Source: Candidatus Latescibacterota bacterium
GTDB taxonomy: Bacteria; Latescibacterota; UBA2968
Direction of reading: 5' to 3'
Length of the DNA: 24,370 bases
NCBI GenBank assembly: GCA_038279365.1
Contig: JAYODI010000081.1
Span: forward strand, 1,409 to 25,778
The notes under the pieces are model-generated. The model saw nothing but the letters and a program-made list of their open reading frames with translations, did not search any database and was not told the DNA's origin. Positions within the stretch are counted from its first letter, which is position 1; every line of letters starts with the position of its first letter. The translations under genes and the position numbers were made by a program. Below, in pieces: positions 5,918 to 23,955 of the stretch.

Positions 5918-5922
5918 AAAGA

Positions 5923-5949: not shown

Positions 5950-6028
5950 GGGTTTGCAGGTTTGGGCGTCTTGTTATACTTTTGATGGCAATAGATATTT
6001 TGTTCATTGGTTTTGAGGAGTACACGTT

Positions 6029-6523: not shown

Positions 6524-6543
6524 GGGTGGACAAATATTAGATG

Positions 6544-6587
6544 AATCCCCTACTTAAACAGTTTTGTTAGGTAGGGGATTTGTTTTT
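6544..6587 (+). terminator. Intrinsic terminator after ppa
   Basis: AATCCCCTACTTAA (6544-6557) / TTAGGTAGGGGATT (6567-6580), one G-U pair, followed by TGTTTTT. Confidence 0.8.
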
Positions 6588-6686
6588 ATATCAATGTTTT
6601 ATGAAAAAACGATTACGTAAAGAAAGATTTGTATAAGGGTGGGCATTGTATTTGTTGTTTTACATATAGATCGCTTTAAAATTCTC

Positions 6687-6934: not shown

Positions 6935-8905
6935 ATGAGCAACTATGTGCAATATTACGGTGTGGATGTGCCTCCTTTAGAACCGATCAAACTGAGTGCT
7001 GGGCCGGTTTCGATGATTTTTGAACCCGCGTTGGGATTTTTGCGGTATATCAAGTTGGGCAATCGCGAGATTTTGCGTGGGCTGTATGTGGCGGTGCGCG
7101 ATCACAACTGGGGTACGGTTGCACCTCAAGTAGACAATGTGCAAGTTGATGATTTGGGTGATGGTTTTGTGTTGACATTTGATGTGTCGTGTGTGTTGCG
7201 CAATATTGATTTTTTTTGGCGGGGGCGTATTACGGGTGATGTAGATGGAACAGTGGTTTATGAAATGGAAGGTGAAGCGCGTTCTACATTTATGCGCAAT
7301 CGCATCGGTTTTTGTGTTTTGCACGCGCCTTCGGCTTGTGCAGGCGATGCATGTGTGATCGAAAAGGCAGATGGTTTGTGTGAAGAAGGCCATTTCCCCA
7401 GTGATATTTCTCCCCACCAACCGTTTGTGGATATGAAGGCCATTGCTCACGAAGTGATTCCGGGTGTGAAAGCACGGGTTGCTTTTGAAGGTGATGTGTT
7501 TGAGATGGAAGATCAGCGCAATTGGACAGATGCGTCTTACAAAACGTATTGCACACCGCTTGGTTTGCCTTTTCCTGTGGAGGTGAAAAAGGGTGAGAAG
7601 GTGCAGCAGTCGGTAAGACTTTCGCTTGAGGGCGATGTATCAGGTGTTTTGCCTGTGGATGATGGGGGTGTGGTCACATTTCGCGCAACGGGCGACGGGG
7701 CTCTGAAATTGCCAGATATTGGCTTGGGTGTGGCCAGTCATGGGCAAGAACTGAGCGATACTGAAATAGCGCGTTTGCAAGTTTTAAATATGTCGCATGT
7801 GCGTGTGGATTTGCATCTGTCGGCACAGGGGTGGCGTGAGGCATTGGAGCGGGCCGTAAAGGATGCTACCGCTTTGGGGGTGGCGTTGGAAGTGGCCCTT
7901 TATGTGAGTGACCAGGCACAAGCAGAGTTGACGGCGTTGGCAGAGGCGTTGGCAAATGCCAACCCCCAGGTGGCGCGTTGGTTTGTGTTTCACAAAGGTG
8001 AAAAGGCGACATCGTCTGGGTGGATGAAGTTGGCACGTGCGGTATTGAAAAAGTATGATACACATCCGCCTTTGGGCGGTGGGGCACCGGCGTATTTTAC
8101 AGAACTCAATCGCAACAGACCGCCCGTAGAAGATTTGGAGTGTGTGGTTTATTCGCTCAACCCACAGGTACACGCATTTGATAATGCGTCGTTGATAGAA
8201 ACCTTGCAAGCTCAAAAGTGGACGGTAGACAGCGCAAAGACTTTTGTGGGCAAATTGCCTATTTCTGTTTCGCCCGTGACGTTTCGCCCACGGTTTAATC
8301 CAAATGCCACGGGTGGCACAGAAGAAACGAATGACGGACATTTGCCATCGCAGGTGGATCCTCGGCAGATGTCTCTTTTTGGTGCTGGGTGGACATTGGG
8401 TTCATTGAAGTATTTGTGTGAGGCGGGAGTGCGCAGCGTGACATATTTTGAAACATCGGGTTGGCGTGGGGTGCAAGAGACCGCCAATGGATCACCTGAG
8501 CCAGGTTTGTTTCCTTCCAAACCCGCATCGGTGTTTCCCCTGTATCATACGTTGGCCTATTTTGGTGGTATGAGAGCCGGTGAGATCGTGCCCTCTTTAT
8601 CCAGTGACACATTGCGCGTTGAAGGTGCCATTTTGCGCCAAGGCCATTGGGTGCGGTTTTTGATTGCGAATCTCACGGCTCAAGAACAGACGGTGTGTGT
8701 GTCTTATTCTGGGCTATTGGGGTCGGTGCGCGTTGAAGTGATGGATGAACGCTATTTTGAAGAAGCAACCGAAAACCCGGAGCGATTTCGCATTCGCAAG
8801 ACGGAAGAACAAGGTGTGGTGATTGTAGGGGTTGAACATGAAGGATTTGAACTGACACTCAAACCCTTTGCGATGGTGTGTGCAAAAGGAACAACAAAAG
8901 AATAG
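6935..8905 (+). CDS. apnL: D-apionate lactonase-like protein
   Basis: ~656 aa with VRDHNWGT, NRIGFCVLH, FEMEDQRNWTDASYKTY, FTELNRNRPP and VDPRQ, motifs I associate with ApnL-type proteins. Co-located with apnO, oiaK and the RLP. ATG 6935 follows GAGGGG. Confidence 0.7.
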   Translation: MSNYVQYYGVDVPPLEPIKLSAGPVSMIFEPALGFLRYIKLGNREILRGLYVAVRDHNWGTVAPQVDNVQVDDLGDGFVLTFDVSCVLRNIDFFWRGRITGDVDGTVVYEMEGEARSTFMRNRIGFCVLHAPSACAGDACVIEKADGLCEEGHFPSDISPHQPFVDMKAIAHEVIPGVKARVAFEGDVFEMEDQRNWTDASYKTYCTPLGLPFPVEVKKGEKVQQSVRLSLEGDVSGVLPVDDGGVVTFRATGDGALKLPDIGLGVASHGQELSDTEIARLQVLNMSHVRVDLHLSAQGWREALERAVKDATALGVALEVALYVSDQAQAELTALAEALANANPQVARWFVFHKGEKATSSGWMKLARAVLKKYDTHPPLGGGAPAYFTELNRNRPPVEDLECVVYSLNPQVHAFDNASLIETLQAQKWTVDSAKTFVGKLPISVSPVTFRPRFNPNATGGTEETNDGHLPSQVDPRQMSLFGAGWTLGSLKYLCEAGVRSVTYFETSGWRGVQETANGSPEPGLFPSKPASVFPLYHTLAYFGGMRAGEIVPSLSSDTLRVEGAILRQGHWVRFLIANLTAQEQTVCVSYSGLLGSVRVEVMDERYFEEATENPERFRIRKTEEQGVVIVGVEHEGFELTLKPFAMVCAKGTTKE

Positions 8906-8984
8906 TGGTTTGAAATGTCGTTTCGTTAGGCAGAATTTTTTTGAGTGAGTACCCGATCAATGTGATGCATGGGAATGGTGCTTT

Positions 8985-9911
8985 ATGGCAAAGCTAACAA
9001 TACAAGGTGATCGTTTTTTAATGAATGGACAGCCTTTCGATATGTGGGGCCTTCGAGCGGCCAGTGGTACCATGCATCAAAAACAAACGGATCATTTGAT
9101 AGCACAATTAGACGATTATTTGGCGTATGGTATTCAGGCCGTAACGGTGTTTTACATGGGCTGTAGTGGCGGGTGGTACGATCCGTTTTCCAGTGACGGC
9201 AAAACACTCGACACCGGCCACCAAGAACGAATGCGTCAAATTGCACAGGCTTGTGACGTGCGTGGGATGGTTTTGATTGTGGGCATTTTTTATCAGCGTG
9301 CACCATTTGGTTTAAAAGATAAAAATGCAGTGGTTGAAGCGGTGCGTGTGGCCACTCGGTCGGTAGAGGGGTTTGAGAATGTGATTATAAACATTGCCAA
9401 CGAACAGAATTCAAAAAATTGGGAAAAGCATGCGGACATGTTCGACTTTCGTGACCCAGAAAGCATTGTGGAATTGTGTGAGGTGGTGCACAAAACGGAT
9501 CGCAATCGGTTGGTGGGTGGTGGGGGATATGATCATGATAAGAATATCATCATTGGGCAATCAGACGCAGTAGATGTGTTGTTGTTTGATACGTGCAACA
9601 TTGAAGACTCTGGCGTGTTGTGTGATCGATTTGTTTCACACGGGGTGGTGAATAAACCGCTTGTGAATGTGGAGTTGTTTGGGGCGTGGACAAAGACCGA
9701 TGTGGTGGGTGTTTTTCCCGATGAGAAAAAAGCCGCGTATTTGCGTGAAGTGGATGTGGCTGCCGATAGAAAAAATTTGTCTGTGTTTTTTCATTCCAAC
9801 TCGTGGTGCCAAGATGAAGGCAATCGGTATGATTTGGCGGGGTCGGGAACCGCGCATGAGCCAGGTATTCGGTGGTATTTTGAGCATGTGAAGAAGGTGC
9901 GTGGTATATAG
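8985..9911 (+). CDS. Hypothetical protein, putative clan-A-like TIM-barrel glycoside hydrolase
   Basis: 308 aa. N-terminal LTIQGDRFLMNGQPF, candidate acid/base motif NIANE and candidate nucleophile motif PLVNVE. No signal peptide. Confidence 0.55.
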   Translation: MAKLTIQGDRFLMNGQPFDMWGLRAASGTMHQKQTDHLIAQLDDYLAYGIQAVTVFYMGCSGGWYDPFSSDGKTLDTGHQERMRQIAQACDVRGMVLIVGIFYQRAPFGLKDKNAVVEAVRVATRSVEGFENVIINIANEQNSKNWEKHADMFDFRDPESIVELCEVVHKTDRNRLVGGGGYDHDKNIIIGQSDAVDVLLFDTCNIEDSGVLCDRFVSHGVVNKPLVNVELFGAWTKTDVVGVFPDEKKAAYLREVDVAADRKNLSVFFHSNSWCQDEGNRYDLAGSGTAHEPGIRWYFEHVKKVRGI

Positions 9912-9929
9912 GCGACAGGAGAGTTTATA

Positions 9930-11189
9930 ATGGCGGAACGCATTGTTGCAAAGTATTTGATGGAGACGGCATTTCCAATTGAACAAGTCGCAGATGTGGT
10001 AGGTGGCGAACAGTCTTCGGGCACGTTTGTCCAAGTGCCCGGTGAAACGGCCGATTTGCGCGAACGGTTTCGGGCACGGGTAGAAAAAATAGATGTGTTG
10101 GAAAAGGTTTCTGAACCAAGTTTGCCTGGTGGGGGGATTCCCAAAGGGGGCAAAAAAGAATACACACGTGCTGAAGTGACGCTGTCTTTTTCACTTGAAA
10201 ATATGGGTGTGAATTTGCCCACGCTCATAGCAACTGTTGCTGGCAATTTGTTTGAGTTGCGCGATGTGTCGGGGCTAAAGCTGTTGGATTTTGACGTGCC
10301 TCAAGCTTTTGCAGAGCGCTATGTGGGGCCACAATTTGGAATTGCTGGCACGCGCAACCTGGCAGGGGTTTTTGATCGTCCCATTATCGGTACTATTGTG
10401 AAGCCGAGTGTGGGGCTGACACCCCAAGCAACGGCCGATTTGACAGGTGAATTGGCACAGGCGGGCATTGATTTTATTAAAGACGATGAACTGATGGCCG
10501 ACCCGCCTCATTCGCCACTCAAAGAACGTGTGGAAAAGGTAATGGCGGTGATCAATCAGGCAGCTGATCGCACGGGCAAGAAGGTGATGTTTGCCTTTAA
10601 TATTACCGATGAATTAGATGCGATGTTGGCACACCACGATACGGTTTTAAAAGCTGGGGGCACGTGTGTGATGGTGAGTCTCAACAGTGTGGGGGCGCCT
10701 GGGGTGGCTTATTTGCGCAAACATTCTCAGTTGCCCATTCACGGGCATCGCAATGGATGGGGCATGTTGACACGGCACCCGATGTTGGGAATCGGTTTTT
10801 CTGCATATCAAAAAATTTGGCGTTTGGCTGGGGTCGATCACATTCATGTCAATGGTTTGCGAAATAAATTTTGGGAGCCCGACGATTCGGTGGTGCAATC
10901 GATAGAGGCGTGTTTTAAGCCTTTTTTAGGCGGATATGAGGTGATGCCTGTGATTTCTTCAGGGCAATCGGTTGGGCAAGCCCCCGATACGTTTAAACGC
11001 GCCAAAGGCGTAGATGTGATGTATTTGGCCGGGGGGGGGATTATGGCGCATCCGGGTGGACCTGCATCGGGCATGAAGGCATTGAGCCAAGCGTGGGAAG
11101 CTGCGGTGAAAGGGATCGATTTGCAAACCTATGCAAAAGAACATGTTGAATTGGCCCAAGCAATTGAAAAGTTTGGCAATTTGTCTTAA
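9930..11189 (+). CDS. RuBisCO-like protein (form IV), 3-oxo-isoapionate-4-phosphate transcarboxylase/decarboxylase type (OiaT/OiaX-like)
   Basis: GEQSSGTF, GTIVKPSVGL, carbamylation motif GIDFIKDDE, HGHRNG, SSGQ, GGGIMAHP. No rbcS or prk in the window; oiaK and apnO are in the same cluster. AGGAG RBS. Confidence 0.9.
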   Translation: MAERIVAKYLMETAFPIEQVADVVGGEQSSGTFVQVPGETADLRERFRARVEKIDVLEKVSEPSLPGGGIPKGGKKEYTRAEVTLSFSLENMGVNLPTLIATVAGNLFELRDVSGLKLLDFDVPQAFAERYVGPQFGIAGTRNLAGVFDRPIIGTIVKPSVGLTPQATADLTGELAQAGIDFIKDDELMADPPHSPLKERVEKVMAVINQAADRTGKKVMFAFNITDELDAMLAHHDTVLKAGGTCVMVSLNSVGAPGVAYLRKHSQLPIHGHRNGWGMLTRHPMLGIGFSAYQKIWRLAGVDHIHVNGLRNKFWEPDDSVVQSIEACFKPFLGGYEVMPVISSGQSVGQAPDTFKRAKGVDVMYLAGGGIMAHPGGPASGMKALSQAWEAAVKGIDLQTYAKEHVELAQAIEKFGNLS

Positions 11190-11201
11190 GGGAGACAAGC
11201 A

Positions 11202-12815
11202 ATGGAAGAAATGGAAGAAACGGAAGCGCACAATGGCAGTGGGCCCGATGTGAGAAAATGGGGGCGTATTGAGATTACGTTTGAAAGTTCAGAGGTATAT
11301 CAAAACCCCATTCAAGATGTGGCATTGCAGGTACTTTTTACGTCGCCTTCAGGTGCTGCAACCCATGTGATGGGGTTTTGGGATGGCAGTACGCGTTTTC
11401 GCGCACGTTTTAGTCCTGAGGAAGAAGGGCTGTGGACATATGTGACGTTTTGTTCGGATATGGACAATGGGGGGTTGCACAATCGGGAGGGTGATTTTGT
11501 GTGTGGCCCTGCCGATACGATTACCGAATTTGATGAACATGGGCCCATTCGTTTGTCGGGTGATCACAGCCATTTTATTCATGCCGATCAAAAGCCGTTT
11601 TTTTGGTTGGCCGATACGGCCTGGAATGGCTGTCTGCTTTCGAGCAAAGATGAGTGGCGTTATTATTTAAGCGAGCGTGTGCGCCAAGGGTTTACGGCTG
11701 TGCAATGGGTGGCCACGCCGTGGCGATCTGCTCCTACAGACAGAGAAGGTCAAAAGGCGTTTGAAGGTGTGGAAAAGATTAAGATCAATCCACGTTTTTT
11801 TCAGCGTTTAGACGAGTGGTTGGAAATGACGTATGACGTGGGGTTGCTCAATGCCCCCGTTTTGCTTTGGACACACCACGGGGGCAAGCACCCCGAAATG
11901 AACCCCGGTGTGGGGTTGCCTGAAGATCAGTTGATTTTGTTGGCCGAATATATGGTGGCGCGTTGGGCGTGTTATCCGGTGGTATGGATTTTGGGTGGTG
12001 ATGGCAAGTATGATGGGGAGTTGGCTGAGCGATGGAAAAAGGTTGGCAGTACGGTTTTTGGTCGCGGGTTACACGCTCCTGTTGCCATGCATGTGGTGGG
12101 GCAGAGTTTTCCCGTTGAAGAATTTCGCAACGAAAGTTGGATGGATATTTTGGGTTATCAAAGTGGGCATGGAGATAATGACAAGACGTTGCAATGGATT
12201 GTGACCGGCCCACCTGCCGAAGATTGGAAAAAGAGGCCTCGCCAGTTTTATATGAATATGGAACCTGCTTATGAAAATCATGTGGCCTATCATTCCAAAA
12301 AGCCACACGATGCGGCGTCTGTTCGAATGGCCATTTATTGGAGTTTGCTCAATGCGCCAACTGCTGGGGTCACGTATGGTGGGCATGGGGTGTGGGGTTG
12401 GGATGATGGCAAGTCTGCGCCGATGGATCACCCCAGTTCGGGCACGCCCTTACCGTGGCGCGATGCGCTAATTATGGAAGGCGCAGAGCAAATGCGTCAT
12501 TTGCGAGATGCCTTTGAAACGGTCGATTGGTGGCAACTGCGTCCAGCGCCAGAGCTTTTGGCCGAGCAACCAGGTGAAGAAGATGTGCATGACCACATTC
12601 TTATTTCTAAATCGGATGCCAATAACTGGGTGGTTGCCTATACGCCTCAAGGCAAGGCCGTGAAGGTGAAGATGGCGGGGTTGCCTGAGCGTTTGGGGGC
12701 GGTGTGGTACAACCCACGCACAGGTGAACCCGAAGCGGCCATTCACCAAATGGATGGCGATGTGCGGGTTTATGAAACGCCGGATGAGTACGATTGGTTG
12801 TTGGTGATGGCTTAA
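11202..12815 (+). CDS. DUF5060/DUF4038 protein, GH140-like apiosidase with C-terminal beta domain
   Basis: N-terminal GFWDG..F.ARFSP..EG.W.Y, then PFFWLADTAW, WILGGD, QSGHG, EPAYE, GVTYGGHGVW and C-terminal WYNPRTG. Confidence 0.8.
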   Translation: MEEMEETEAHNGSGPDVRKWGRIEITFESSEVYQNPIQDVALQVLFTSPSGAATHVMGFWDGSTRFRARFSPEEEGLWTYVTFCSDMDNGGLHNREGDFVCGPADTITEFDEHGPIRLSGDHSHFIHADQKPFFWLADTAWNGCLLSSKDEWRYYLSERVRQGFTAVQWVATPWRSAPTDREGQKAFEGVEKIKINPRFFQRLDEWLEMTYDVGLLNAPVLLWTHHGGKHPEMNPGVGLPEDQLILLAEYMVARWACYPVVWILGGDGKYDGELAERWKKVGSTVFGRGLHAPVAMHVVGQSFPVEEFRNESWMDILGYQSGHGDNDKTLQWIVTGPPAEDWKKRPRQFYMNMEPAYENHVAYHSKKPHDAASVRMAIYWSLLNAPTAGVTYGGHGVWGWDDGKSAPMDHPSSGTPLPWRDALIMEGAEQMRHLRDAFETVDWWQLRPAPELLAEQPGEEDVHDHILISKSDANNWVVAYTPQGKAVKVKMAGLPERLGAVWYNPRTGEPEAAIHQMDGDVRVYETPDEYDWLLVMA

Positions 12816-12833
12816 ATACTGCAAGGAGTTGTG

Positions 12834-13784
12834 ATGAACGTTGTATATCTCGAACCTGTTCCTGAAGATGTTGAAGCCATTGTTCGGGAATGTTTACCAA
12901 GCGATTTGTTTTTGCGTGTTTTAAAGGCAGGTGAAAAACCTGAGGATGTGGTGGCCGATGCAGATTTTTTGTTGGTGGCCACCACAAAGGTGACCGAGGG
13001 GGTGTTGGCCAAGGCCACAAAGCTTAAGCACATCCAACACCAAGGCGTGGGGTATAACAATATTGATTTGGTTGCGTCCAAAGCCAAAGGCATCTCAATA
13101 GGTTTGACACCAGAAGGTACAAGCATTCCGGTGGCTGAACATGTTTTTTTGCAGATTTTAAGTTTGTATCGCAAACTGTTTGAGGCGCGTCAATCATTGC
13201 GCGATGGCAAATGGTTGCAGTGGGAATTGCGTCCTTATTCATACGATTTGGTGGGCAAAACGGTTGGCATTGTTGGCTTGGGGCGCATTGGACGCGAGTT
13301 GGCTGTGCGTTTGCGTGCGTTTGGATGTGAGGTGTTTTATACCGATGCCCAACGTATTTCTGAAGTGGATGAACTTGATTTGGGTGTGGTGTTTACTGAG
13401 TTGGATGATTTGTTGCAACGCTCAGATATCGTGAGTTTGCATGTGCCATTGTTGCCTGAAACGCGCAATTTGATTGATCAACGCGAATTGGAATTGATGA
13501 AACCCAATGCCATTTTGATCAATGCCGCGCGGGGTGGGCTAATTAATGAAGCGGCATTGGTGACGGCTTTGAATGCGGGGCAAATTGCAGGGGCAGGTTT
13601 GGATGTATTTGAACAGGAACCCCCACCCAAAGATCATCCGTTGTTGTTTATGGACAATGTGGTTGCGGTGCCTCACATTGCCGCAGGTACACGCGATGCC
13701 TATGCCACCAAAATGCGCGCAGCCTTTGCCAATATGTTGCGGGTGAAACGCGGGGAACGGCCCATAAATGAAGTGGATCTTTAA
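12834..13784 (+). CDS. D-isomer-specific 2-hydroxyacid dehydrogenase (NAD-dependent)
   Basis: GVGYNNID, VAEH, Rossmann motif GLGRIG with a downstream Asp, and catalytic Arg (NAARG), Glu (DVFEQEP) and His (PHIA). Confidence 0.92.
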   Translation: MNVVYLEPVPEDVEAIVRECLPSDLFLRVLKAGEKPEDVVADADFLLVATTKVTEGVLAKATKLKHIQHQGVGYNNIDLVASKAKGISIGLTPEGTSIPVAEHVFLQILSLYRKLFEARQSLRDGKWLQWELRPYSYDLVGKTVGIVGLGRIGRELAVRLRAFGCEVFYTDAQRISEVDELDLGVVFTELDDLLQRSDIVSLHVPLLPETRNLIDQRELELMKPNAILINAARGGLINEAALVTALNAGQIAGAGLDVFEQEPPPKDHPLLFMDNVVAVPHIAAGTRDAYATKMRAAFANMLRVKRGERPINEVDL

Positions 13785-13811
13785 GTGTTGTTTTTTTGAA
13801 TGGAGATGGAT

Positions 13812-14486
13812 ATGGCACTACCCGAAGGTTGGACGATTGTAACCAATTATGATAAACCCTCTGCCGATGTGGTGGCACAATTTAAAGGTGTAGAGACGGG
13901 GCCAGTAGGAGATGCTTTGGGGCGTTCGGCAGCAATGGATGCGGCCATTAAGCCCATTGTTGCGGGTCTAAATGTATTGGGGACAGCGGTGACGGTGAGC
14001 ACACGACCCTGTGATAATTTGGCATGTTATAAAGCGTTAGATGTGGCTGGCCCTGGCGATGTGTTGGTGATTGCGGTGCAGGGGTACCCTACCCATTCGG
14101 TGTGGGGCGATTTGACCAGTGAAATTGCCAAGACCAAAGGGCTTGCTGGCATGGTGACCGATGGTATGGTGCGCGATGTGATGGGATTAACGGAGGTGGG
14201 ATTACCTGTTTTTGCCAGAGGGTTAACACCCAACAGCCCACAAAAAGATGGCCCTGCCGAGATCAATGTGCCTGTTGTGTGTGGTGGTATTTTGGTGAAT
14301 CCGGGCGATATTGTGGTGGGGGATACCGATGGCATTGTGGTGATACCCAAAGCACGTGTCGAAGAGGTGCTTGAAAAAGTGAAAGTCATTGCAATGAAGG
14401 AGGCGGGTATTCGGGAGAGCATTCGCGCCAATGGCGGTTTGCCCGATTCGGCCATTCAGATGTTGAAGGACAAAGGGTTGATGTAG
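13812..14486 (+). CDS. RraA family / 4-hydroxy-4-methyl-2-oxoglutarate aldolase-like protein
   Basis: DAL, GTAVTV, DNL, PGDVLV, WGDL, DGMVRD, PVFARG, PGDIVVGDTDGIVVIP. Start could be 13800, 13806 or 13812; 13812 fits the GGAG spacing best. Confidence 0.88.
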   Translation: MALPEGWTIVTNYDKPSADVVAQFKGVETGPVGDALGRSAAMDAAIKPIVAGLNVLGTAVTVSTRPCDNLACYKALDVAGPGDVLVIAVQGYPTHSVWGDLTSEIAKTKGLAGMVTDGMVRDVMGLTEVGLPVFARGLTPNSPQKDGPAEINVPVVCGGILVNPGDIVVGDTDGIVVIPKARVEEVLEKVKVIAMKEAGIRESIRANGGLPDSAIQMLKDKGLM

Positions 14487-14511
14487 TCTGTTTGTGGACG
14501 GATAAAAGACA

Positions 14512-15957
14512 GTGAATGGTGATGTGATGTTTTTAGGTGATCAGGTTGTTACTAAAACAGATCTTTTGCGTGCGTTGCCACCCGAATGGGCAGAGGATGT
14601 GTCGGTTGATTTGCGTGCACGTATTCAGATGCGTCATCGCAAGTTGGTGGTGTTGGATGATGACCCAACAGGGGCACAAGCCATGCACAGTGCGCCAGTG
14701 TTAACACATTGGAATCGTGATGTGTTGCGTTTGGCATTGTTGAATGATTCGGCTTTGTTCTTTATTGTGAGCAACACGCGTGGGTTGCCTCAAGAAGAGG
14801 CGGTTGCTGTGACTGGCGAGATTGTGATGGCTGTTGCAGATGTGGCAACTGAGTGTGGCGTAGTGTTTGATGTGTTGGTGCGCGGTGATTCAACTTTGCG
14901 CGGGCATTACCCACATGAACTCAATGTGGTACGCGAGGTTTTGGGTGCAAATGGACAACGGTTTGATGGTGTGGTTTTATGCCCATTTTTTTTAGAAGGT
15001 GGGCGTCTCACAGCATTTGATGTGCAGTGGGTGACCGATGGTGAACAGCTGATTCCTGCCGGACAAACCGAATATGCTCGTGATCGAACATTTGGTTATA
15101 GCAAGTCGAATCTACGCGATTGGGTGGTTGAAAAAACGCGTGGAATGGTTTTGCGAGACAATGTGGTTTCTATTGGCTTAAATGTGATTCGCGAACAAGG
15201 TCCTCAAGGCGTTTGTAAGGTTTTGATGGATGTGCGTGATGGGCAACCCGTTGTGGTCAATGCGGTGAGTTATCGCGACTTGGAAGTGTTTGTTGCAGGT
15301 TTGTTAGATGCCGAAGATGCAGGTAAACGCTTTTTGTTTCGTACGGCGGCGTCTTTTTTAAAAGTGAGAAGTGGCCGTTTAGAGCGTGGCCTGTTGCGTG
15401 GTTCTGATTTTGGAATGTTGGAAGGGGTTGGGGGATTGGTTGTTGTAGGGTCATATATCCAAAAGTCCACGGCCCAATTGACAGAAGCGTTGGCCGTTGG
15501 GGGTGTGGTGGGGGTTGAATTACTGGTTGCAAAGGTATTAAATCGGCAAGATCGAGAACGTGAAATTTTACGCGTGACAGGTGAGATTGAACGTGCTCTT
15601 GGGTTGGATAAAGACGTGATTGTTTTTACAAGTCGCAACCAAGAGGTCGCTGGAGATTTGGCTGCTGGCAAAAAAATCGGGACGGCTTTGGTCGATGTGG
15701 TTGAGAGATTGGAAGTGCGTCCTCGGTATGTGATGGTTAAAGGTGGAAACACGGCTATTTCAATTGTGAGAGATGGTTTGCACACACAATCGGCATGGGC
15801 TTTGGGGCAAATTTTACCCGGTGTGCCTGTGTGGCAATTGGGTGTAGAAAGTCGTTTGCCCCAAGTGCCTTGTGTGGTGTTTCCTGGCAATGTAGGTGAG
15901 GCGGATAGTTTGGCGAAAGCGATCCATATTTTACGTGAGGCACGTGATGCTATATAA
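14512..15957 (+). CDS. Four-carbon acid sugar kinase family protein (DUF1537), DDDPTG subtype
   Basis: VVLDDDPTG, NTR, RGDSTLRGHY, PFFLEGGR, VGSY, KGGNT, GQILPGVP, FPGNVG. Start uncertain (GTG 14512 or ATG 14527). Confidence 0.88.
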   Translation: MNGDVMFLGDQVVTKTDLLRALPPEWAEDVSVDLRARIQMRHRKLVVLDDDPTGAQAMHSAPVLTHWNRDVLRLALLNDSALFFIVSNTRGLPQEEAVAVTGEIVMAVADVATECGVVFDVLVRGDSTLRGHYPHELNVVREVLGANGQRFDGVVLCPFFLEGGRLTAFDVQWVTDGEQLIPAGQTEYARDRTFGYSKSNLRDWVVEKTRGMVLRDNVVSIGLNVIREQGPQGVCKVLMDVRDGQPVVVNAVSYRDLEVFVAGLLDAEDAGKRFLFRTAASFLKVRSGRLERGLLRGSDFGMLEGVGGLVVVGSYIQKSTAQLTEALAVGGVVGVELLVAKVLNRQDREREILRVTGEIERALGLDKDVIVFTSRNQEVAGDLAAGKKIGTALVDVVERLEVRPRYVMVKGGNTAISIVRDGLHTQSAWALGQILPGVPVWQLGVESRLPQVPCVVFPGNVGEADSLAKAIHILREARDAI

Positions 15958-16783
15958 AAAACATACTGTGCACTATGAAGTGCTCAATCAAAAACCCGAT
16001 GGACAAGATCGATATTGCGACCTTGAGGTGCATGCTTCTGTTGAAGAATTGGAACAGTTGGCGCGGGAGGGGTATTTGGTGCGCGAAGGAATGTTTCAGG
16101 GTGAGGCATTGTGTGCATTGCAAGATGCTTTGGATCGTTTGGAAAAAAACGAGCGTGATCGCTATAATGAAAACCCTGCACAAGAGCGCTCTTGGGGGCA
16201 TATTCCGCGCCATTTGATGGACAAAGATCCGGTATTTTTGGATCTGTTGAAATGCCCACCGATTTTGTCTGTGGCGCGAGCAATGATGGGACCATTGGTG
16301 CGTTTACGAGGGTTGAGCGCACGCATCAGTTATCCGGGCCCCGTGTTACACGAAACGCCTTGGCACCAACATTTGCGGGTGGTGTCCAATCCATTGCCGA
16401 CTTGGTTCTCACGCCCCCATGCTTTGGATGCGTTGATTTATTTGGATGATTTAAACGAACAAACAGGCGCAGTAGAAATTGTGCCAGGTTCTCATGATTG
16501 GTTGGATCGTGAACCACCCAGTGGTTATGATCAATCTGTAGAGGGGGCGCTTAAAGTGTGCGTGAAGGCTGGGGGCGTGGTGATGATTCATTCCAATTTG
16601 TGGCATCGCGGGTTGCCCACATTGGGTGCAAAACGCAGGATGTTGATTTTGGGTTATACACCCACATGGTTGCGACGTTCACCGCATGGGGGGGAGCCAC
16701 CTTCTGATGGGTTGACACAAGCGGTTTTGCACGGTGATGACGAAGAAGCGCGTATTCTATTGGGCAAGGGTGGGTATACCTGA
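15947..16783 (+). CDS. PhyH-like Fe(II)/2-oxoglutarate dioxygenase-fold protein
   Basis: REGYLV, WHQH, IYLDD, GAVEIVPGSH, AGGVVMIHSNLWHRG and a downstream RR. ATG 15947 overlaps the end of the kinase gene. Confidence 0.85.
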   Translation: MLYKKHTVHYEVLNQKPDGQDRYCDLEVHASVEELEQLAREGYLVREGMFQGEALCALQDALDRLEKNERDRYNENPAQERSWGHIPRHLMDKDPVFLDLLKCPPILSVARAMMGPLVRLRGLSARISYPGPVLHETPWHQHLRVVSNPLPTWFSRPHALDALIYLDDLNEQTGAVEIVPGSHDWLDREPPSGYDQSVEGALKVCVKAGGVVMIHSNLWHRGLPTLGAKRRMLILGYTPTWLRRSPHGGEPPSDGLTQAVLHGDDEEARILLGKGGYT

Positions 16784-16869
16784 GTTCTGTTTGGTTAAAA
16801 ACTGAAAGATAAAAATTATTAAGGTGCGAAGGTTTATTGAAGACCTTCTTATTTGAAAAAGGAGTTCAT

Positions 16870-19044
16870 ATGTCTGATCGCATAGAAGTTGGGAACTTGA
16901 AAATTGATGCGGAATTATTCAATTTGGTAAAAGATGAAATCACACCAGGCACGGGTGTGGATGTGGATGCCCTTTGGAAAGGTTTTGGCAAGATCGTGGA
17001 CGATTTGGCACCCAAAAATCGTGCATTGTTAGAAAAACGCGATGCCATTCAAGCAAAGATTGATGCTTGGCATGTACAACACAAAGGACAGCCCATTGAT
17101 GCAGTGGCCTACAAATCATTTTTAAAAGAGACAGGATATTTGCAACCAGAAGGCGATCATTTTCAAGTGTTGACCACAAATGTTGATCCTGAGGTGGCAA
17201 CTGTTGCAGGACCTCAATTGGTGGTGCCTGTAGATAATGCACGGTATTGCCTCAATGCTGCCAATGCACGCTGGGGCAGTTTGTATGATGCGTTCTATGG
17301 TACGGATGTGATTTCGGAAGATGGTGGTGCCGGAAAAACGGGTGGATACAATCCTGTGCGTGGTGAAAAGGTGATTGCACAAGCCCAAGCCTTTTTGGAC
17401 GAAACGGTGCCTTTGGCAAGTGGGTCGTACGCCACCGTGACACAATTTTCTCTGGATGATGATGGGGTTAAAAAGACGTTGGTGGCCACTGTAAATGGGG
17501 AACGCACAGGTTTAAAGTCACCTGAGCAATTTGTCGGGTATGTGGCTGAAGAAGGTGAACTGTCTGTGGTCTTGCTTCAAAACAATGGCTTGCATATCGA
17601 AATACATATTGATGCCAATCACCCCATTGGTAAAACACATCCTGCGGGTATCAAAGATGTGGTTTTAGAGTCGGCCATTACCACCATTCAAGATTGTGAA
17701 GATTCTGTTGCTGCCGTAGATGCCGAAGACAAAGTAAGGGTATATCGCAATTGGTGTGGGTTGATGAAGGGAACTTTGGAAACGTCTTTTAAAAAAGGAG
17801 ACCAAACGGTATCTCGGCGTTTAAATCCAGACCGTCATTATATGGGTGTTGATGGGCAACCTCTCACATTACCAGGGCGCAGTGTGCTGTTGGTACGCAA
17901 TGTTGGAATGCATATGTATACCGATGCCGTGGTGACATCTGAGGGGGCAGATATTCCAGAAGGATTTTTGGATGCCTTGGTGACGTCTTTGGCCGCCATT
18001 CACGATCTGAAGGGCAATGGAGCATTTAAAAACAGTCGCTCGGGTAGCATTTACATTGTGAAGCCCAAAATGCATGGCCCAGAAGAAGTGGCGGCTACGG
18101 TTGAATTGTTTGGGCGAGTGGAAGCGGTTTTGGGTTTGGAAAAGAATACCATGAAGATTGGTATTATGGATGAAGAACGACGCACGACGGTCAATTTGAA
18201 ACGGGCCATTTGGGAAGCGCGTGAGCGATTGATTTTTATTAATACGGGCTTTTTAGATCGCACAGGTGATGAGATGCACACAAGTATGGAAGCTGGAGCA
18301 ATGTTGCCCAAGGGTGAGATTAAGAATCAGCCTTGGTTGGGGGCTTATGAAGATTGGAATGTGGATGTGGGCATTGAAACAGGTTTGGTGGGGAAGGGGC
18401 AAATTGGCAAAGGGATGTGGGCTATGCCCGATCAGATGAAATCTATGGTTGATTCCAAAATGGGTCACCCCAACGCTGGAGCCAGTACGGCCTGGGTGCC
18501 TTCGCCAACTGCGGCAACGTTGCATGCGATTCATTATCACCAAGTGAATGTGTCTGCTCGTCAAGATGCATTGGCAAAGCGAGAAAGGGCGAGTTTGGAT
18601 GCCATTTTGACGCCACCGTTATTAGATCGCACACTGGATGAGGCCACCATTCAACGTGAGTTGGATAACAATGCCCAAGGTATTTTGGGTTATGTGGTGC
18701 GATGGATTGATCAAGGAATTGGATGTTCAAAAGTGCCCGACTTAAATGATGTGGGTTTGATGGAAGATCGCGCAACATTGCGCATTTCAAGCCAGCATAT
18801 TGCCAACTGGTTGCATCAAGGCATTGTCAGTGCCGATCAGGTGCGGGCAACATTTGAAAAAATGGCCTCTGTTGTGGATCGCCAAAATGCGGGTGATGCG
18901 CTATATAAAAATATGGCACCCAACTTTGATGGCATCGCTTATCAGGCCGCTTTGGATTTGGTGTTTAAAGGACGTGATGTGGCCAATGGTTATACAGAAC
19001 CCGTGTTGCATGCGCGTCGTCGTGAAGCAAAAGCATCTTCTTAA
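16870..19044 (+). CDS. glcB: Malate synthase G
   Basis: ~724 aa. [93 protein letters not shown] before ATG 16870. Confidence 0.97.
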
Positions 19045-19055
19045 GGAGTGTTTCT

Positions 19056-20177
19056 ATGCTTACACCACCCAATGCAGAAATGATAGCACAATGGCGACAC
19101 CATTTACAAGATGAAGCAGATGCGGCTTTTTTATATCGGCGCTTGTCAGATCATGAGCCCAATCAGAAGAAGAAGGATCTCTATTGGCAATTATCAGAAG
19201 TGGAAGATCGGCATACGGAAGCGTGGCGAAATGTATTTACAGAATATGGCATCGCGTTTAAAGAGCCACGCCCATCACTGAAATCGCGTTTTTTGGCATG
19301 GGTCGGTTCTCATTTTGGTGCAAAAGTACTGCTTTCCTTTTTGTTGCGAGAAGAAGGACAAGAGGTAAAGGCGTATCTGGATTTGTATCAAAACAGTGCT
19401 CCCGGAAAGTCAAAAGAAACCGCACTTACATTGGCACAAGAATCGGCTGGGCATGCTGAGACCTTGTCTGAAATTGCCGATATCGAAGGCGAGCCATGGC
19501 ACAATGCCGATTCGGGTGGTTTTGTGCGCAATGTGGTGTATGGTTTTAATGATGGCTTGACGGCCAATTTTGGTTTGGTGGCTGGGGTAATTGGGGCTGC
19601 CGTTGAACCTCATGTGATTTTGGTCACAGGGGTGGCTGGCACCATTGCCGATGCTTTGTCGATGGGGTCTTCGGGATATTTGGCCGCTAAGAGCGAGCAA
19701 GAGGTATATAGTTATGAAATCGAAATGGAGCGCACGGAAATTCAATTAATGCCCGAATTGGAAACTGAAGAGTTGGCATTGATTTATCAAACGCGTGGCA
19801 TTGACAAGGAACAAGCTTTGGAACTGGCCAAAGATGTGATGTCTGATCAGGAACGGGCTTTGGAAGAGAAGGTTCGTGAAGAATTGAAAATTGGTGCCCC
19901 TCATGCCACACCTATGCAAGAAGCGTGGATAACTGGCATAGCAACAGCTGTGGGTGCATTTATCCCAGTGGTGCCTTTTATGGTGTTGTCTGGTGCAACA
20001 GCGATGTGGACATCGTTTGCCATTGCGATGTTGTCGCATTTTGCGGTTGGCGCGGCACGCAGTTTGTTTACCGGACGCAGTATTTTTCGCAGTGGTGTCG
20101 ATATGTTGGTGGTGGGGCTTGGTGTTGCCATTGGTGGGTATGTGGTAGGTGACTTGATGGTTCGTTGGTTGATGTAG
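19056..20177 (+). CDS. VIT1/CCC1 family iron/manganese transporter with N-terminal ferritin/rubrerythrin-like domain
   Basis: N-terminal DEADAAFLY...EDRH...ESAGH helices, then RNVVYGFNDGL, GTIADALSMGSSGYLA and C-terminal transmembrane helices. Confidence 0.88.
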   Translation: MLTPPNAEMIAQWRHHLQDEADAAFLYRRLSDHEPNQKKKDLYWQLSEVEDRHTEAWRNVFTEYGIAFKEPRPSLKSRFLAWVGSHFGAKVLLSFLLREEGQEVKAYLDLYQNSAPGKSKETALTLAQESAGHAETLSEIADIEGEPWHNADSGGFVRNVVYGFNDGLTANFGLVAGVIGAAVEPHVILVTGVAGTIADALSMGSSGYLAAKSEQEVYSYEIEMERTEIQLMPELETEELALIYQTRGIDKEQALELAKDVMSDQERALEEKVREELKIGAPHATPMQEAWITGIATAVGAFIPVVPFMVLSGATAMWTSFAIAMLSHFAVGAARSLFTGRSIFRSGVDMLVVGLGVAIGGYVVGDLMVRWLM

Positions 20178-20187
20178 GGAGTGGGTG

Positions 20188-21561
20188 ATGTCTGATCTTA
20201 TTTTAAGTTATTATGGCGATGATTTTACAGGTTCGACCGATGTGATGGAGGCATTGTCTTTTGCTGGGTTGAAGACCGTGTTGTTTTTGTCTCCCCCTAA
20301 GCTTGAGCAGATTGCAAAATTTAAAGATGTGAAAGCTGTGGGTGTGGCAGGGTGCACGCGTTCCATGTCACCCGATGATATGGAACGGGAACTCACGCCT
20401 GTATATGAAGCATTTCGGAAACTGAAGACGCCGATTGTACATTATAAGACGTGTTCCACATTTGATTCGGCACCCGATGTGGGAAGCATTGGGCGTGCAA
20501 TCGATTTGGGGCAAGACGTTTTTGGGGGTGCTTTTGTACCGCTTGTTGTGGGGGCACCGGTTTTAAACAGATATTGTGCATTTGGCAATTTGTTTGCTCG
20601 GTCTGGTTTAGATAGCGATTTGTTTCGACTAGACCGACACCCCACCATGAAACAGCATCCGATTACGCCCATGACGGAAGCCGATTTGCGATTGCATTTG
20701 GGCAAACAAACCCATAAGTCTATTGGGTTGTTGGATGTTTTGGCATTGGGTTTGGATGATAATGAGTTGGCGCATGCTTTTGACGCGGTGATGAAAGATA
20801 AACCCGATGTGTTGTTGTTTGATACGGTTTACAATGCACATTTGCCAAAGATTGGGCGTTTGATTTGGCAACAAGCACAAAAGAATCCGTTATTTGTTGC
20901 GGGGTCTTCGGGGGCAGAATATGCATTGGTGGCACATTGGCGCGACGTGGGGATTTTGCCCGAAACATTTGTGAAACCGACAGTGAATGCGGTTGATCAA
21001 ATTGTGATTGTGTCGGGGAGTTGTTCACCTGTTACGGCCAATCAAATAGATCATGCTGTACAACATGGCTTTGCCGAGGTTGCGCTTGATCCTGTGTTAT
21101 TTGCTGATCCTTCTGCTGTTGATGGCGCGGTTGAAGCAGGTATTCAAGCAGGCTTAAAGGCAATGGCGGGTGGGCAAAGTGCCATTTTGCATACAGGGCG
21201 AGGGCCCGGTGATCCGCGCATTGCTCAAACGACAGACCATCTCAAAAGACAAGGGTATACAGATCTGGACATCAAGCTCAAAAGTGGAGAAGTAATTGGT
21301 ACTGCTGTGGGGCGTATTTTGAAAGGGATTTTGACACAGTCAAAATTGAAACGCGCGGCAACAGCAGGGGGTGATACCTCGTATTATGTGGCCAAAGCTT
21401 TGGGTATTGAGGCATTGGAAGTGGTCGCACCCACAGCACCAGGGTCACCGATGTGTCGTATTTTTGGGGCCGGTTTGGATGGTATTGAAATGACGTTTAA
21501 AGGTGGGCAGGTGGGCAAGGTTGATTTTTTTATGGGAATAAAAACTGGGAAATTTTCATAA
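20188..21561 (+). CDS. oiaK: 3-oxo-isoapionate kinase (four-carbon acid sugar kinase family)
   Basis: YYGDDFTGSTD, HYKTCSTFDS, GSIG, RYCAFGNLFA, RLDRHPTM..HPITPMTEADL, GSSG, SGSCS, GGDTS, KGGQVG. Adjacent to apnO. Confidence 0.8.
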   Translation: MSDLILSYYGDDFTGSTDVMEALSFAGLKTVLFLSPPKLEQIAKFKDVKAVGVAGCTRSMSPDDMERELTPVYEAFRKLKTPIVHYKTCSTFDSAPDVGSIGRAIDLGQDVFGGAFVPLVVGAPVLNRYCAFGNLFARSGLDSDLFRLDRHPTMKQHPITPMTEADLRLHLGKQTHKSIGLLDVLALGLDDNELAHAFDAVMKDKPDVLLFDTVYNAHLPKIGRLIWQQAQKNPLFVAGSSGAEYALVAHWRDVGILPETFVKPTVNAVDQIVIVSGSCSPVTANQIDHAVQHGFAEVALDPVLFADPSAVDGAVEAGIQAGLKAMAGGQSAILHTGRGPGDPRIAQTTDHLKRQGYTDLDIKLKSGEVIGTAVGRILKGILTQSKLKRAATAGGDTSYYVAKALGIEALEVVAPTAPGSPMCRIFGAGLDGIEMTFKGGQVGKVDFFMGIKTGKFS

Positions 21562-21576
21562 TTTAAGGAGTTCGAC

Positions 21577-22410
21577 ATGGCAATTAAAATTGCATTAATC
21601 GGCGCAGCAGGCAGTATGGGCACGCGGGCTTATAACGCATTGGGAAAAGACCCCAATTACGAATTGTTTTGTGTGGAAAGCCCTGGGGGGGAAGAAAAAT
21701 TGCGCGAAAAGGGCATCACGTGTGTGCCCATGGAAGAGGCCGTTAAAAAGGCAGATGTGGCTTTGATGACGGTGCCCGATATTTTGGTGGGCAAGGTATC
21801 ACATTTGGTGGTGCCGCATTTAAAGTCTGGAGGGATGTTGATTGTTTTAGACCCAGCCGCGCCCTATGCTGGTGAATTGCCCAAGCGTGATGATGTGACT
21901 TATTTTGCCACGCATCCTGCGCACCCACCGGTGTTTAATGACGAAGTGGATATGGATGCCCGGCGTGATTTTTTTGGGAGTGGGTTGGCCAAACAAGCCA
22001 TTGTCAATGCATTGATACAAGGGCCAGAAGAAGATTATGCCAAAGGTGAAGCCATTGGCAGTCGTATGTTTCAACCCATTTTGCGTTCGCATCGGGTCAC
22101 GTTGGAACAGATGGCCATGTTGGAGCCTGCGATGTCAGAAACGATGGCGGCCACGTGTATTACAGTCATGCGCGAGGCCATGGATGAAGCCATAGCACGT
22201 GGTGTGCCTGCCGAAGCCGCACGCGATTTTATGATGGGGCATATAAATATCGAGTTGGCCATTGTGTTTGATGAAATTGATTGGGAGTTTTCAGATGGTG
22301 CAAAAGTGGCCATTGAAAAAGCCAAAGAGAAAGTGTTTCAGGCCGATTGGAAGAAAGTATTTGACCGAGAGCATTTGCTGGCAAGTGTGAAGGATATTGT
22401 GAAAGGGTAA
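21577..22410 (+). CDS. apnO: D-apionate oxidoisomerase
   Basis: Rossmann motif GAAGSMG, VPD, LDPAAP, HPxHPPVF, DFFG, AKQ, LEPAMSE, AARDFMMGH, FSDGA. Downstream of oiaK with an AGGAG RBS. Confidence 0.82.
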   Translation: MAIKIALIGAAGSMGTRAYNALGKDPNYELFCVESPGGEEKLREKGITCVPMEEAVKKADVALMTVPDILVGKVSHLVVPHLKSGGMLIVLDPAAPYAGELPKRDDVTYFATHPAHPPVFNDEVDMDARRDFFGSGLAKQAIVNALIQGPEEDYAKGEAIGSRMFQPILRSHRVTLEQMAMLEPAMSETMAATCITVMREAMDEAIARGVPAEAARDFMMGHINIELAIVFDEIDWEFSDGAKVAIEKAKEKVFQADWKKVFDREHLLASVKDIVKG

Positions 22411-22469
22411 GCCTCAATTCGTCGAGGCGGGATATCCTACGTGCCTTTGTTTTTTATTGGAATGTATTT

Positions 22470-23123
22470 ATGGCTTCAACTGTTGAGACACCACGCATCT
22501 TGTTAAAAGATCGGGCTTACGAGGCTTTGAAAGAATTGATTCTTCAGGAAGTTTTTCCACCAGGGTCTTTTCTTTCCGAACGTCAGTTGGCCACGCGATT
22601 GGAGATGAGTAAGACACCGATTCGGGCGGCCTTGGAGCGATTGGAAACGGAAGGTTTGGTTTCTGTATCGCCACAACAGGGGATTTTGGTGCGTGAAACC
22701 TCTGTTCACGAAGTGGTCGATATTTTTGATGTGCGTATTGCCTTAGAGCGATTTGCCATGCATCGTATTGCAGGTATGTTATCACCTGCACAGCAATTGC
22801 AGGTGCAAGAAAATTTGGACGCCCAAAAAAAAGCACTCGAAGAAGGGGATGTGCCAGTGTTTACCGAATTGGATGCTGATTTTCACTTGATGTTGTGTGG
22901 TTTTTTGGGCAATCGTGAAGTGGTTCAGGTGATGCGTCGTTTGCGCGATCGGTTGTATCGCATTGCCCTTCAGGTGTTGTTGCACGATGTGGGGCGTATT
23001 CGAAGCAGCTATGATGAACACAAAAAGATATTGGATATGTTGATTCAAGGTGATGGGGTGTCTGCGGCAGATTTGGTAGAATCGCATTTGGTTTATGGCA
23101 AGCAGGTTCTCATTTCAAGATAG
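22470..23123 (+). CDS. GntR family (FadR/FCD subfamily) transcriptional regulator
   Basis: Winged HTH with LSERQLA..LEMSKTPIRAAL..LETEGLV; FCD motifs DADFH and EH..I...L. Confidence 0.93.
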   Translation: MASTVETPRILLKDRAYEALKELILQEVFPPGSFLSERQLATRLEMSKTPIRAALERLETEGLVSVSPQQGILVRETSVHEVVDIFDVRIALERFAMHRIAGMLSPAQQLQVQENLDAQKKALEEGDVPVFTELDADFHLMLCGFLGNREVVQVMRRLRDRLYRIALQVLLHDVGRIRSSYDEHKKILDMLIQGDGVSAADLVESHLVYGKQVLISR

Positions 23124-23133
23124 GATCAAGGAT

Positions 23134-23889
23134 ATGCGAACGGTGCTGGCTATGGATGTGGGCAATACGCGGGTGAAAGTGGCTTTGTTTGTAAGCGGGC
23201 ATATTGAGGCACGTTTGCAAGTGCCAACAAGCCAAGTGCGTGATGAGACTTTTTTAACATCACAATTGCGTTCTTCATTTGGGCAATGGGCCACTGTAGA
23301 TGCTTGTTTGATTGCATCTGTGGTAAAGGGACTTCACGAACCGCTGATAGCGTCCATACAAGCGATGTGGTCGGTGTCGCCAGTTGTGATTCATTCAAAA
23401 AATGATTTGGGCATTGGGATCGATGTGCCAAAACCTGAAGGTGTGGGCATTGATCGGTTGCTTGAGGCCAGTGCGGCTTTTCATATTTTGAAGTCGGGGG
23501 TGGTGGTTGCGGCATTTGGTTCTGCCATCACAATTGATTTGGTGACACCTGACGGCGTTTTTCGGGGGGGGACGATTTTGTCTGGTTTGCGTATGGGTTT
23601 ATTCGCTTTGCATCAGATGACCAGCATGTTGCCAAATTTGGAGGTAAAAGCACCCGATGGTGTTTTGGGTAAAGATACGGTAACTTGTATGCAGGCCGGT
23701 GTGGTATATGGCGCCGCGGGAGCAGTGGATCGTATTTATGAGGAGTTGTGTGTGATTGCTGGTCAATCGTTGCCACTCATTGTGACTGGTGGGGATGTGC
23801 GTTATGTTGCACCGTTGTTGCGATCACAATATCAAATTGAGGAAGATTTGGTGTTGCGAGGCATCATGGCATTAGACGCACGATCGTGA
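23134..23889 (+). CDS. coaX: Type III pantothenate kinase
   Basis: DVGNT, ASVV, GIDR, FGSAITID, GGTI, GKDT, TGG, LVLRG. ATG 23134. Confidence 0.9.
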   Translation: MRTVLAMDVGNTRVKVALFVSGHIEARLQVPTSQVRDETFLTSQLRSSFGQWATVDACLIASVVKGLHEPLIASIQAMWSVSPVVIHSKNDLGIGIDVPKPEGVGIDRLLEASAAFHILKSGVVVAAFGSAITIDLVTPDGVFRGGTILSGLRMGLFALHQMTSMLPNLEVKAPDGVLGKDTVTCMQAGVVYGAAGAVDRIYEELCVIAGQSLPLIVTGGDVRYVAPLLRSQYQIEEDLVLRGIMALDARS

Positions 23890-23899
23890 GGACATACAA

Positions 23900-23947
23900 A
23901 AATAAAAAAGGCGACTGATAGTAAAGGATCGGTCGCCTTTTTTATTT
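23900..23947. terminator. Bidirectional intrinsic terminator between coaX and the convergent gene
   Basis: AAATAAAAAAGGCGACTGAT / ATCGGTCGCCTTTTTTATTT inverted repeat with an A-tract and a T-tract on its flanks. Confidence 0.88.
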
Positions 23948-23955
23948 GGAAGATA

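Follow-up and report, generated by a model that had tools for sequence, protein, structure and literature searches.

What does a run of thirteen genes around a RuBisCO-like protein (RLP) do in a Candidatus Latescibacterota bacterium (GCA_038279365.1), and do all thirteen belong to one pathway? The genes lie at positions 6935-23123 of the window, by which we mean the whole 24,370-nt stretch of contig JAYODI010000081.1 that was analysed. A sequence-only reading had described them as an expanded operon of apiose and apionate catabolism and had taken the extra genes between the core ones as signs of a larger branched-sugar pathway. In our view the locus is probably a mixed operon, in which five core genes would serve the breakdown of D-apionate via an OiaT-like RLP upstream of coaX, and in which the genes in the gap between the RLP gene and oiaK vary independently of this core. 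The core consists of apnL, the RLP gene, oiaK, apnO and gntR, with activities predicted from homology:

6935..8905, + strand: apnL-like gene, distant D-apionate lactonase homologue, function less sure (NF049900, 332/750 bits)
9930..11189, + strand: form IV RLP, predicted OiaT-like 3-oxo-isoapionate-4-phosphate transcarboxylase/hydrolase (identity, residues, tree)
20188..21561, + strand: oiaK-like gene, predicted 3-oxo-isoapionate kinase (NF042436, 479/700 bits)
21577..22410, + strand: apnO-like gene, predicted D-apionate oxidoisomerase (PF16896; PDB 5T57, E 3e-87)
22470..23123, + strand: GntR/FCD regulator, likely pathway repressor (family match; neighbours of relatives)

This core likely matches oxidative D-apiose/apionate catabolism, the common trunk of which, a PF16896 ApnO, a DUF1537 kinase and an RLP, is found here in one locus. 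The best NCBIfam matches are, in core order, ApnL (332 bits, cut-off 750), OiaX (513, cut-off 700) and OiaK (479, cut-off 700), and NF049900 is the sole model match of the apnL-like protein, over its full length, where a control ApnL scores 899. A kinase adjoining an NCBI-named oiaX scores 469 on the OiaK model, that is, also below 700, a calibration that favours the OiaK label and is of no help for the ApnL (control 899) or OiaX (control 786) labels. The product of apnO, which matches what we take to be the ApnO structure (PDB 5T57), shares 50-51% identity with PF16896 genes at three RLP loci, and relatives of gntR (45-57%) adjoin RLP loci such as L017, L021, L077 and L196, and also one in genome G011.

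The distribution of these genes points the same way. In a set of 61 related genomes that counts the present one (they are kin and in part incomplete, so that the numbers are to be read as a pattern rather than as a statistical test), the RLP gene is present in eight, oiaK in seven and apnO in the same seven. These apionate-pathway homologues travel together, which supports the earlier reading of the core. The eighth RLP genome (G001, 930 contigs) has only the RLP gene of these three, on a contig that stops after glcB. The apnL-like gene occurs in ten genomes, three of them without an RLP; these copies (L164 in G003, L163 in G007 and L165 in G056) also stand without oiaK and apnO, and the one in G056 follows a 2-hydroxyacid dehydrogenase gene and another enzyme gene. 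In addition, an ApsD-like Gfo/Idh/MocA gene lies on another contig (C148:47083), its product being 50-54% identical (340-367 bits) to dehydrogenases of two plasmid apiose loci, reference genes that were picked by gene context, and its next paralogue scores only about 96 bits. It was found in 6/61 genomes, five of which are among the eight with an RLP, and in none of the 21 genomes of genus g5.

Between the core genes stand eight others, the cargo of the locus:

8985..9911, + strand: GH5-like glycoside hydrolase, recent insertion (many homologues with PF00150; E140 and E230 invariant)
11202..12815, + strand: DUF5060 plus apiosidase-like (GH140-like) hydrolase (PF13204, 239 bits; PF16586)
12834..13784, + strand: D-2-hydroxyacid dehydrogenase, candidate for glycolate or 3-phosphoglycerate (phosphoglycerate dehydrogenase 251/454 bits, glyoxylate reductase 236/455 bits)
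13812..14486, + strand: RraA/HMG-aldolase-family protein (PF03737)
14527..15957, + strand: second DUF1537 four-carbon acid-sugar kinase, of another subfamily than OiaK (PF07005/PF17042, no OiaK model match)
15947..16783, + strand: PhyH-fold non-haem iron enzyme with H140-x-H142...H220, lineage resident (PF05721)
16870..19044, + strand: glcB, malate synthase G, lineage resident (TIGR01345, 1075/989 bits)
19056..20177, + strand: VIT1/CCC1 metal transporter with an ExxH-bearing N-terminal extension (PF01988, residues 157-365)

Relatives throughout the family share a frame in which apnL and the RLP gene are followed by variable genes and then by oiaK, apnO, gntR or birA, and coaX. What fills the variable slot differs in other core-bearing genera: G004, G008 and G011 have a nucleoside-hydrolase-like gene and a sulfatase-like one there, and G009 has the nucleoside-hydrolase-like gene after the RLP and a major facilitator superfamily gene before oiaK. 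Conversely, not one of the 21 genomes of genus g5 has any of the four core enzymes, yet the GH140-like gene, phyH and glcB persist at the site: at its 20 glcB loci phyH is adjacent in all 20 (one partial), a GH140-like gene is present in 16 and coaX in 17. The same is seen in G003 (one contig, 100% complete) and G007, where apnL, cargo and coaX are kept and RLP, oiaK and apnO are all missing. As a whole, phyH (28/61 genomes), glcB (50/61, single copy here), VIT1 (7/61, five of them without the core) and the GH140-like gene (21/61, including 16/21 of g5) occur mostly in genomes without the core, and VIT1, whose ExxH-bearing extension we take to carry a ferritin-like motif, is likely unrelated cargo.

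The remaining cargo genes except the dehydrogenase vary even inside the genus. At this site rraA is found only in this genome among those examined, and a second one of the 61 genomes has it at 41% identity; a beta-lactamase-fold gene takes its position in G002, and in G001, where the flanking genes lie on a single contig, neither rraA nor the second kinase stands between them. The second kinase occurs in 2/61 genomes, and what adjoins its plasmid relatives is not an RLP but a class II aldolase, NAD-dependent dehydrogenases or both. Between apnL and the RLP gene, no GH5-like gene is present in G002, G001 and L193. Thus the extra genes were not found together with the core in independent lineages, as one conserved expanded pathway would have it; of the outcome that the sequence-only reading had named as refuting it, extra genes never syntenic in other genomes, only half is borne out, as they are syntenic elsewhere, but without the core. 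The claim of a larger pathway does not survive these distributions, and the expansion is likely mostly lineage-specific cargo in an ordinary pathway operon.

Comparison with RLP loci farther afield (79 from other genomes and 80 from metagenomes, picked by RLP similarity, many of them short, with at least one contig in both sets) gives a similar picture. There, oiaK usually follows the RLP gene directly or one gene later, and none of the 79 genome and 80 metagenome loci showed glcB, the second kinase, rraA, phyH, VIT1, the GH5-like gene, LerI or DerI. The nearest named locus (L001, Candidatus Latescibacterota) has an RLP 90% identical to ours; its gene order equals that of G002:C3, and the two were counted once. 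Inserts between the RLP gene and oiaK are seen elsewhere too, namely what is presumably a GxxExxY-like gene in three loci and an aldo-keto-reductase-like gene (L002:3536-4396, L199:4781-5665, L227:5585-6448, L196:8719-9654).

Which reaction the RLP catalyses is the central point of the predicted route. RLPs had been reported in Latescibacterota before (bioRxiv 10.1101/2020.06.19.156794), and another source describes two RLPs that decarboxylate or transcarboxylate/hydrolyse 3-oxo-isoapionate 4-phosphate (PMC6302742). The window RLP is 58% identical to seven proteins named transcarboxylase/hydrolase by the Joint Genome Institute (JGI) and 45-48% identical to three NCBI-named OiaX proteins. A set of 13 OiaT-side rows and the three OiaX rows are told apart by 59 alignment columns, of which the window RLP has the OiaT state in 36, the OiaX state in seven and neither in 16. 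It retains E27, N106 and H306, positions at which OiaX shows D, G and Q, and its active-site states E27, N106, K184-D-D-E187 and H306, at positions we take to be E60/N123/K201/H327 in RuBisCO numbering, are those of the OiaT-named proteins. In a careful tree of 38 rows (37 of the 105 compared plus one, the distant outgroup left out), it falls outside the OiaX clade (100/100).

The lower pathway of OiaX runs through the isomerases LerI and DerI, and neither was found in this genome, where the sole TIM lies in a gap-pgk-tpi run and two RpiB proteins score 118 and 72 (DerI cut-off 240); the OiaX locus L098 has both TIM- and RpiB-type isomerases. Three other assignments were rejected: an OiaX decarboxylase (513 bits on NF042437, below 700, where a true OiaX scores 786; outside the OiaX clade; no LerI/DerI found), a CO2-fixing RuBisCO (251/497 bits on the form III model; Ser at the K177 position) and a methionine-salvage enolase (175/409 bits). 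Taken together, the protein likely works like OiaT without being a member of the OiaT clade, and we call it OiaT-like rather than OiaT because it lies outside the clade of OiaT-named proteins.

The route proposed for the locus would then begin with intracellular cleavage of an apioside, for which the GH140-like enzyme is the probable catalyst. The ApsD-like enzyme (C148) would oxidise D-apiose, and ApnL would open the lactone; ApnO would convert apionate to 3-oxo-isoapionate, which OiaK would phosphorylate. The RLP would split the C5 product into 3-phosphoglycerate and glycolate, which are reportedly the products of OiaT in the 2018 work of Carter et al. Glycolate might become glyoxylate via a GlcD/F-like pair on contig C74 (517/568 and 267/333 bits) or via the 2-hydroxyacid dehydrogenase of the operon, and then malate via GlcB. 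Isocitrate lyase was not found in this genome by a search whose control was positive in 8/14 genomes, and for this reason GlcB was rejected as a glyoxylate-shunt member; together with the pair on C74, this makes it plausible that glycolate reaches malate. VIT1, phyH, rraA, the second kinase and the GH5-like gene would not be needed for such an apioside route.

Several observations weigh against this reading. None of the core proteins reaches its NCBIfam cut-off, and the apnL-like protein is only 31% identical to the Microvirga ApnL that scores 899. The OiaT labels are automatic JGI names, and the compared rows did not include the characterised Xanthobacter sequence. The residues that the RLP shares with OiaT are common to most of the family, which makes OiaX derived and is not proof that the window RLP is OiaT. 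Moreover, the tree places the RLP outside the clade holding the OiaT-named rows (95/94), as sister (96/86) to a clade in which most loci have, rather than apnO, an Asp/Glu-racemase-family gene. In the search for ApsD, only 34 candidates were scored in each genome, and an apiose-type ABC transporter was not found (DUF2291, 0 matches; best binding protein 23%). Finally, the search for close GlcD orthologues found none in four of the five core-bearing relatives, G002 having only a 35% match, and none in five core-less relatives.

The alternative that survives best, though we rate it well below the mixed operon, is that the genus has recruited the dehydrogenase and malate synthase G to dispose of the glycolate from the RLP, giving a complete unit from apioside to malate and 3-phosphoglycerate. 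It is compatible with the mixed operon and adds selection for linkage. Both products expected of an OiaT-like RLP are 2-hydroxyacids, and they correspond to the substrates of the best matches of the dehydrogenase, whose PDB matches split between phosphoglycerate dehydrogenase and glyoxylate reductase. Its orthologue is present in only three of the 61 genomes, all three of this genus and all RLP-bearing, with glcB in the same run, and it is the only extra gene both limited to core-bearing genomes and present throughout the genus; without isocitrate lyase, GlcB would also need another source of glyoxylate. However, the wide distribution of glcB speaks against a dedicated role in the apionate route: it stays at the site in g5 without the core, lies on other contigs in five core-bearing genomes of other genera, and is found beside 0/79 genome and 0/80 metagenome RLP loci. 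A GlcD/F-like pair is already encoded on C74, and NAD-linked oxidation of glycolate is uphill. In the literature searched, which covered few subscription journals, no link of malate synthase, glycolate and apiose was found. What may survive of the expansion idea is thus the apiosidase link of the GH140-like enzyme and, possibly, glycolate disposal by dehydrogenase and malate synthase.

Somewhat less likely again is an RLP of an uncharacterised branch with other chemistry, either decarboxylation to a lower route of another kind or oxygenation, or a locus acting on another branched sugar acid. The RLP lies outside both named clades, as sister to racemase-type RLPs, and the range of RLP reactions includes decarboxylation and oxygenation (PMC10176493); the apnL-like protein, too, has only 31% identity to an ApnL that passes its model, and three genomes keep the gene without the core. 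On the other side, apnO, apnL and the ApsD-like gene co-occur with the RLP, erythrulose isomerases were not found in this genome, and apnO-type loci in which LerI and DerI were not found stand on both sides of the RLP tree. As for the racemase-type relatives, the RLP-kinase loci L002-L080 fall almost entirely into two separate types, 27 of apnO type and 40 with an Asp/Glu-racemase-family gene and a bile-acid symporter, with both genes in just 2/79 (racemase-family examples are L022:12570-13235 and L100:11664-12323). The protein of the racemase family may stand in for ApnO or point to a different substrate.

We regard as doubtful a still more complete version, in which the operon would lead from apioside to central metabolism with RLP glycolate passing to malate by the in-operon NAD-linked dehydrogenase and malate synthase G, and in which the PhyH-fold protein would be a second glyoxylate-yielding oxygenase and stand beside malate synthase for that reason. 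In both this genus and g5, phyH does stand immediately before glcB, also where the two have been relocated together (G006, G014, G022). The protein has the motif H140-Q-H142...H220 rather than the canonical H-x-D/E...H triad, H142 aligning with the Asp of the KanJ H-x-D. H-x-H is kept in every phyH orthologue covering the motif, and paralogues in this genome mostly have H-x-D. The 84 full-length representatives among the 150 best matches include 38 with H/H/H and 36 with H/D/H, the former concentrated among the closest matches, and the literature searched, with its coverage of few subscription journals, contained no description of such a three-His PhyH-fold enzyme. A single-sequence fold of the protein (predicted local distance difference test score, 34) was not usable. 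This genome (G000) shows large expansions of such enzymes, with about 60 PhyH-like and 88 sulfatase-like tblastn matches.

That all thirteen genes form one larger branched-sugar pathway, in which the second kinase, the RraA aldolase and the dehydrogenase would make up a side branch that handles a related sugar acid, is very improbable: it has on its side the tight gene spacing, the likeness of this trio to the partners of the kinase's plasmid relatives, and the GH140-like genes near apnO-type RLPs, but the trio occurs together only here, G002 lacks rraA and G001 both rraA and the kinase, and phyH, glcB, VIT1 and the GH140-like gene are found mostly in core-less genomes, so that the distributions largely refute it.

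For the GH140-like enzyme, the mixed-operon reading proposes a step at the head of the route. Its best PDB matches are 8T9W (E 3e-23) and 3KZS/5MSY (E 4e-20), and besides the PF13204 match it has D267 and E354 aligned with both carboxylates of BT1012, which we take to be catalytic. GH140-like genes lie near 7/29 apnO-type RLP loci against 2/50 other loci, in several phyla, and in G004 a different GH140-like gene directly follows the RLP gene. This recurrence supports the earlier idea of an apioside link, which its retention in 16 core-less g5 genomes does not; a role as apiosidase is plausible from these matches, and the retention is not accounted for. This genome also has two more distant GH140-like matches and, on C24, an orthologue of the G004 version. 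Four plasmid loci considered as references for a non-oxidative apiose route were rejected, three being erythritol-type in look and the fourth another RLP locus. The GH5-like profile matches GH5 endoglucanases at E 6.8e-5, and its family of at least 401 proteins, with E140 and E230 invariant, extends to Poribacteria, Planctomycetota and haloarchaea. The nucleoside-hydrolase-like gene, accompanied by a sulfatase gene in this family, recurs beside apnL or the RLP gene in genera g2 and g3 (L090:9011-9952, L091:11534-14151, L164:12130-14567) and near a Microvirga locus (L099:15724-16623), and possibly points to an N-glycoside or sulfated source of apiose.

As to transcription, the earlier description of thirteen co-oriented, tightly spaced genes was accurate: 13 + strand open reading frames of the families it named fill 6935-23123, with gaps from likeliest starts of 79, 18, 12, 15-18, 15-27, 25-40, -11, 86, 11, 7-10, 15 and 59 bases (7-86 bases overall), the sole overlap being the 11 bases shared by the second kinase gene and phyH. 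The locus is bounded by the following features:

6543..6590, + strand: terminator-like hairpin and T run, closing upstream ppa (-27.4 kcal/mol over 6524-6600)
23134..23889, + strand: coaX, type III pantothenate kinase, a housekeeping gene and the last of the locus throughout the family (family match, conserved position)
23897..23948, no strand assigned: terminator-like hairpin, flanked on both sides by A and T runs (-27.9 kcal/mol over 23885-23960)

Because coaX starts 10 bases after gntR (ATG at 23134, with a Shine-Dalgarno sequence), the transcription unit probably comprises 14 genes, from 6935 to 23889, co-transcription being inferred from spacing. The second hairpin sits between coaX and a converging open reading frame (23956-24294). 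Three internal gaps fold at -13 to -16 kcal/mol, weaker than both flanking hairpins, and an 8-pair hairpin with a T-rich tail (16828-16848) lies 5' of glcB. Consensus scans gave no excess over shuffled sequence (22 promoters against 24.0, 20 terminators against 21.5), and cargo and core are not separable by G+C content (0.46-0.52) or by that of third codon positions. RNA evidence is thin (best share 0.06). Short contig pieces from RNA libraries match apnL, the GH140-like gene, the dehydrogenase gene, rraA, phyH, oiaK and coaX (0-3 differences), and one spans the glcB/VIT1 junction; as DNA may be present in the libraries, these pieces show neither co-transcription nor habitat. Upstream, at 592-6523, lie uvrB, nadC, a TANGO2-like gene, an acyltransferase gene, a DinB-like gene and ppa; uvrB and nadC precede apnL also in G008, and nadC in G007, which suggests an old chromosomal site.

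With these findings, a known sugar pathway that uses an RLP reaches a lineage of Latescibacterota and takes in an RLP branch that belongs to neither named clade; the chemistry of the window RLP bears on many unassigned RLPs. They also call for caution, as the tight spacing here would reflect a gene-trading operon anchored on coaX and not one pathway. The H-x-H...H subfamily of PhyH proteins may merit attention of its own.

Compared with known systems, the PhyH-fold protein shares the PF05721 fold with the PhyH/KanJ/EctD-type Fe(II)/2-oxoglutarate dioxygenases, its first and distal His aligning with those of KanJ, but throughout its subfamily a His occupies the carboxylate-ligand position. Similarly, the GH140-like protein shares PF13204 with the GH140 apiosidases (BT1012; PDB 5MSY/3KZS, 8T9W), the two presumed catalytic carboxylates aligning with D267 and E354, whereas it is distant from them (E 1e-20 to 1e-23), has an extra N-terminal DUF5060, shows no evident signal peptide by eye and is retained by 16 genomes that lack the oxidative core. 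The OiaX branch of Agrobacterium/Rhizobium (NF042437) likewise combines an RLP, a DUF1537 kinase and ApnO, and NF042437 is the best NCBIfam match of our RLP; however, the score is 513 against a cut-off of 700, E27/N106/H306 stand where OiaX has D/G/Q, and the isomerases were not found here. The OiaT branch of the oxidative D-apiose pathway (PMC6302742; bioRxiv 10.64898/2026.03.13.711244) differs in that the window RLP lies outside the alphaproteobacterial OiaT clade, the apnL-like protein is only 31% identical to ApnL, and the RLP gene and oiaK are 9 kb apart rather than adjacent; here, moreover, ApsD is encoded on another contig and no ABC/TRAP transporter is present in the locus. Nevertheless, this branch has the same core families, its OiaT-named RLPs are 58% identical to ours with the same E/N/H states, and LerI/DerI were not found here. 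In Xanthobacter autotrophicus, the pathway is said, after Carter et al. in 2018, to consist of ApsD, ApnL, ApnO, OiaK and OiaT, and the core content of the window is identical with that of the Microvirga locus L099.

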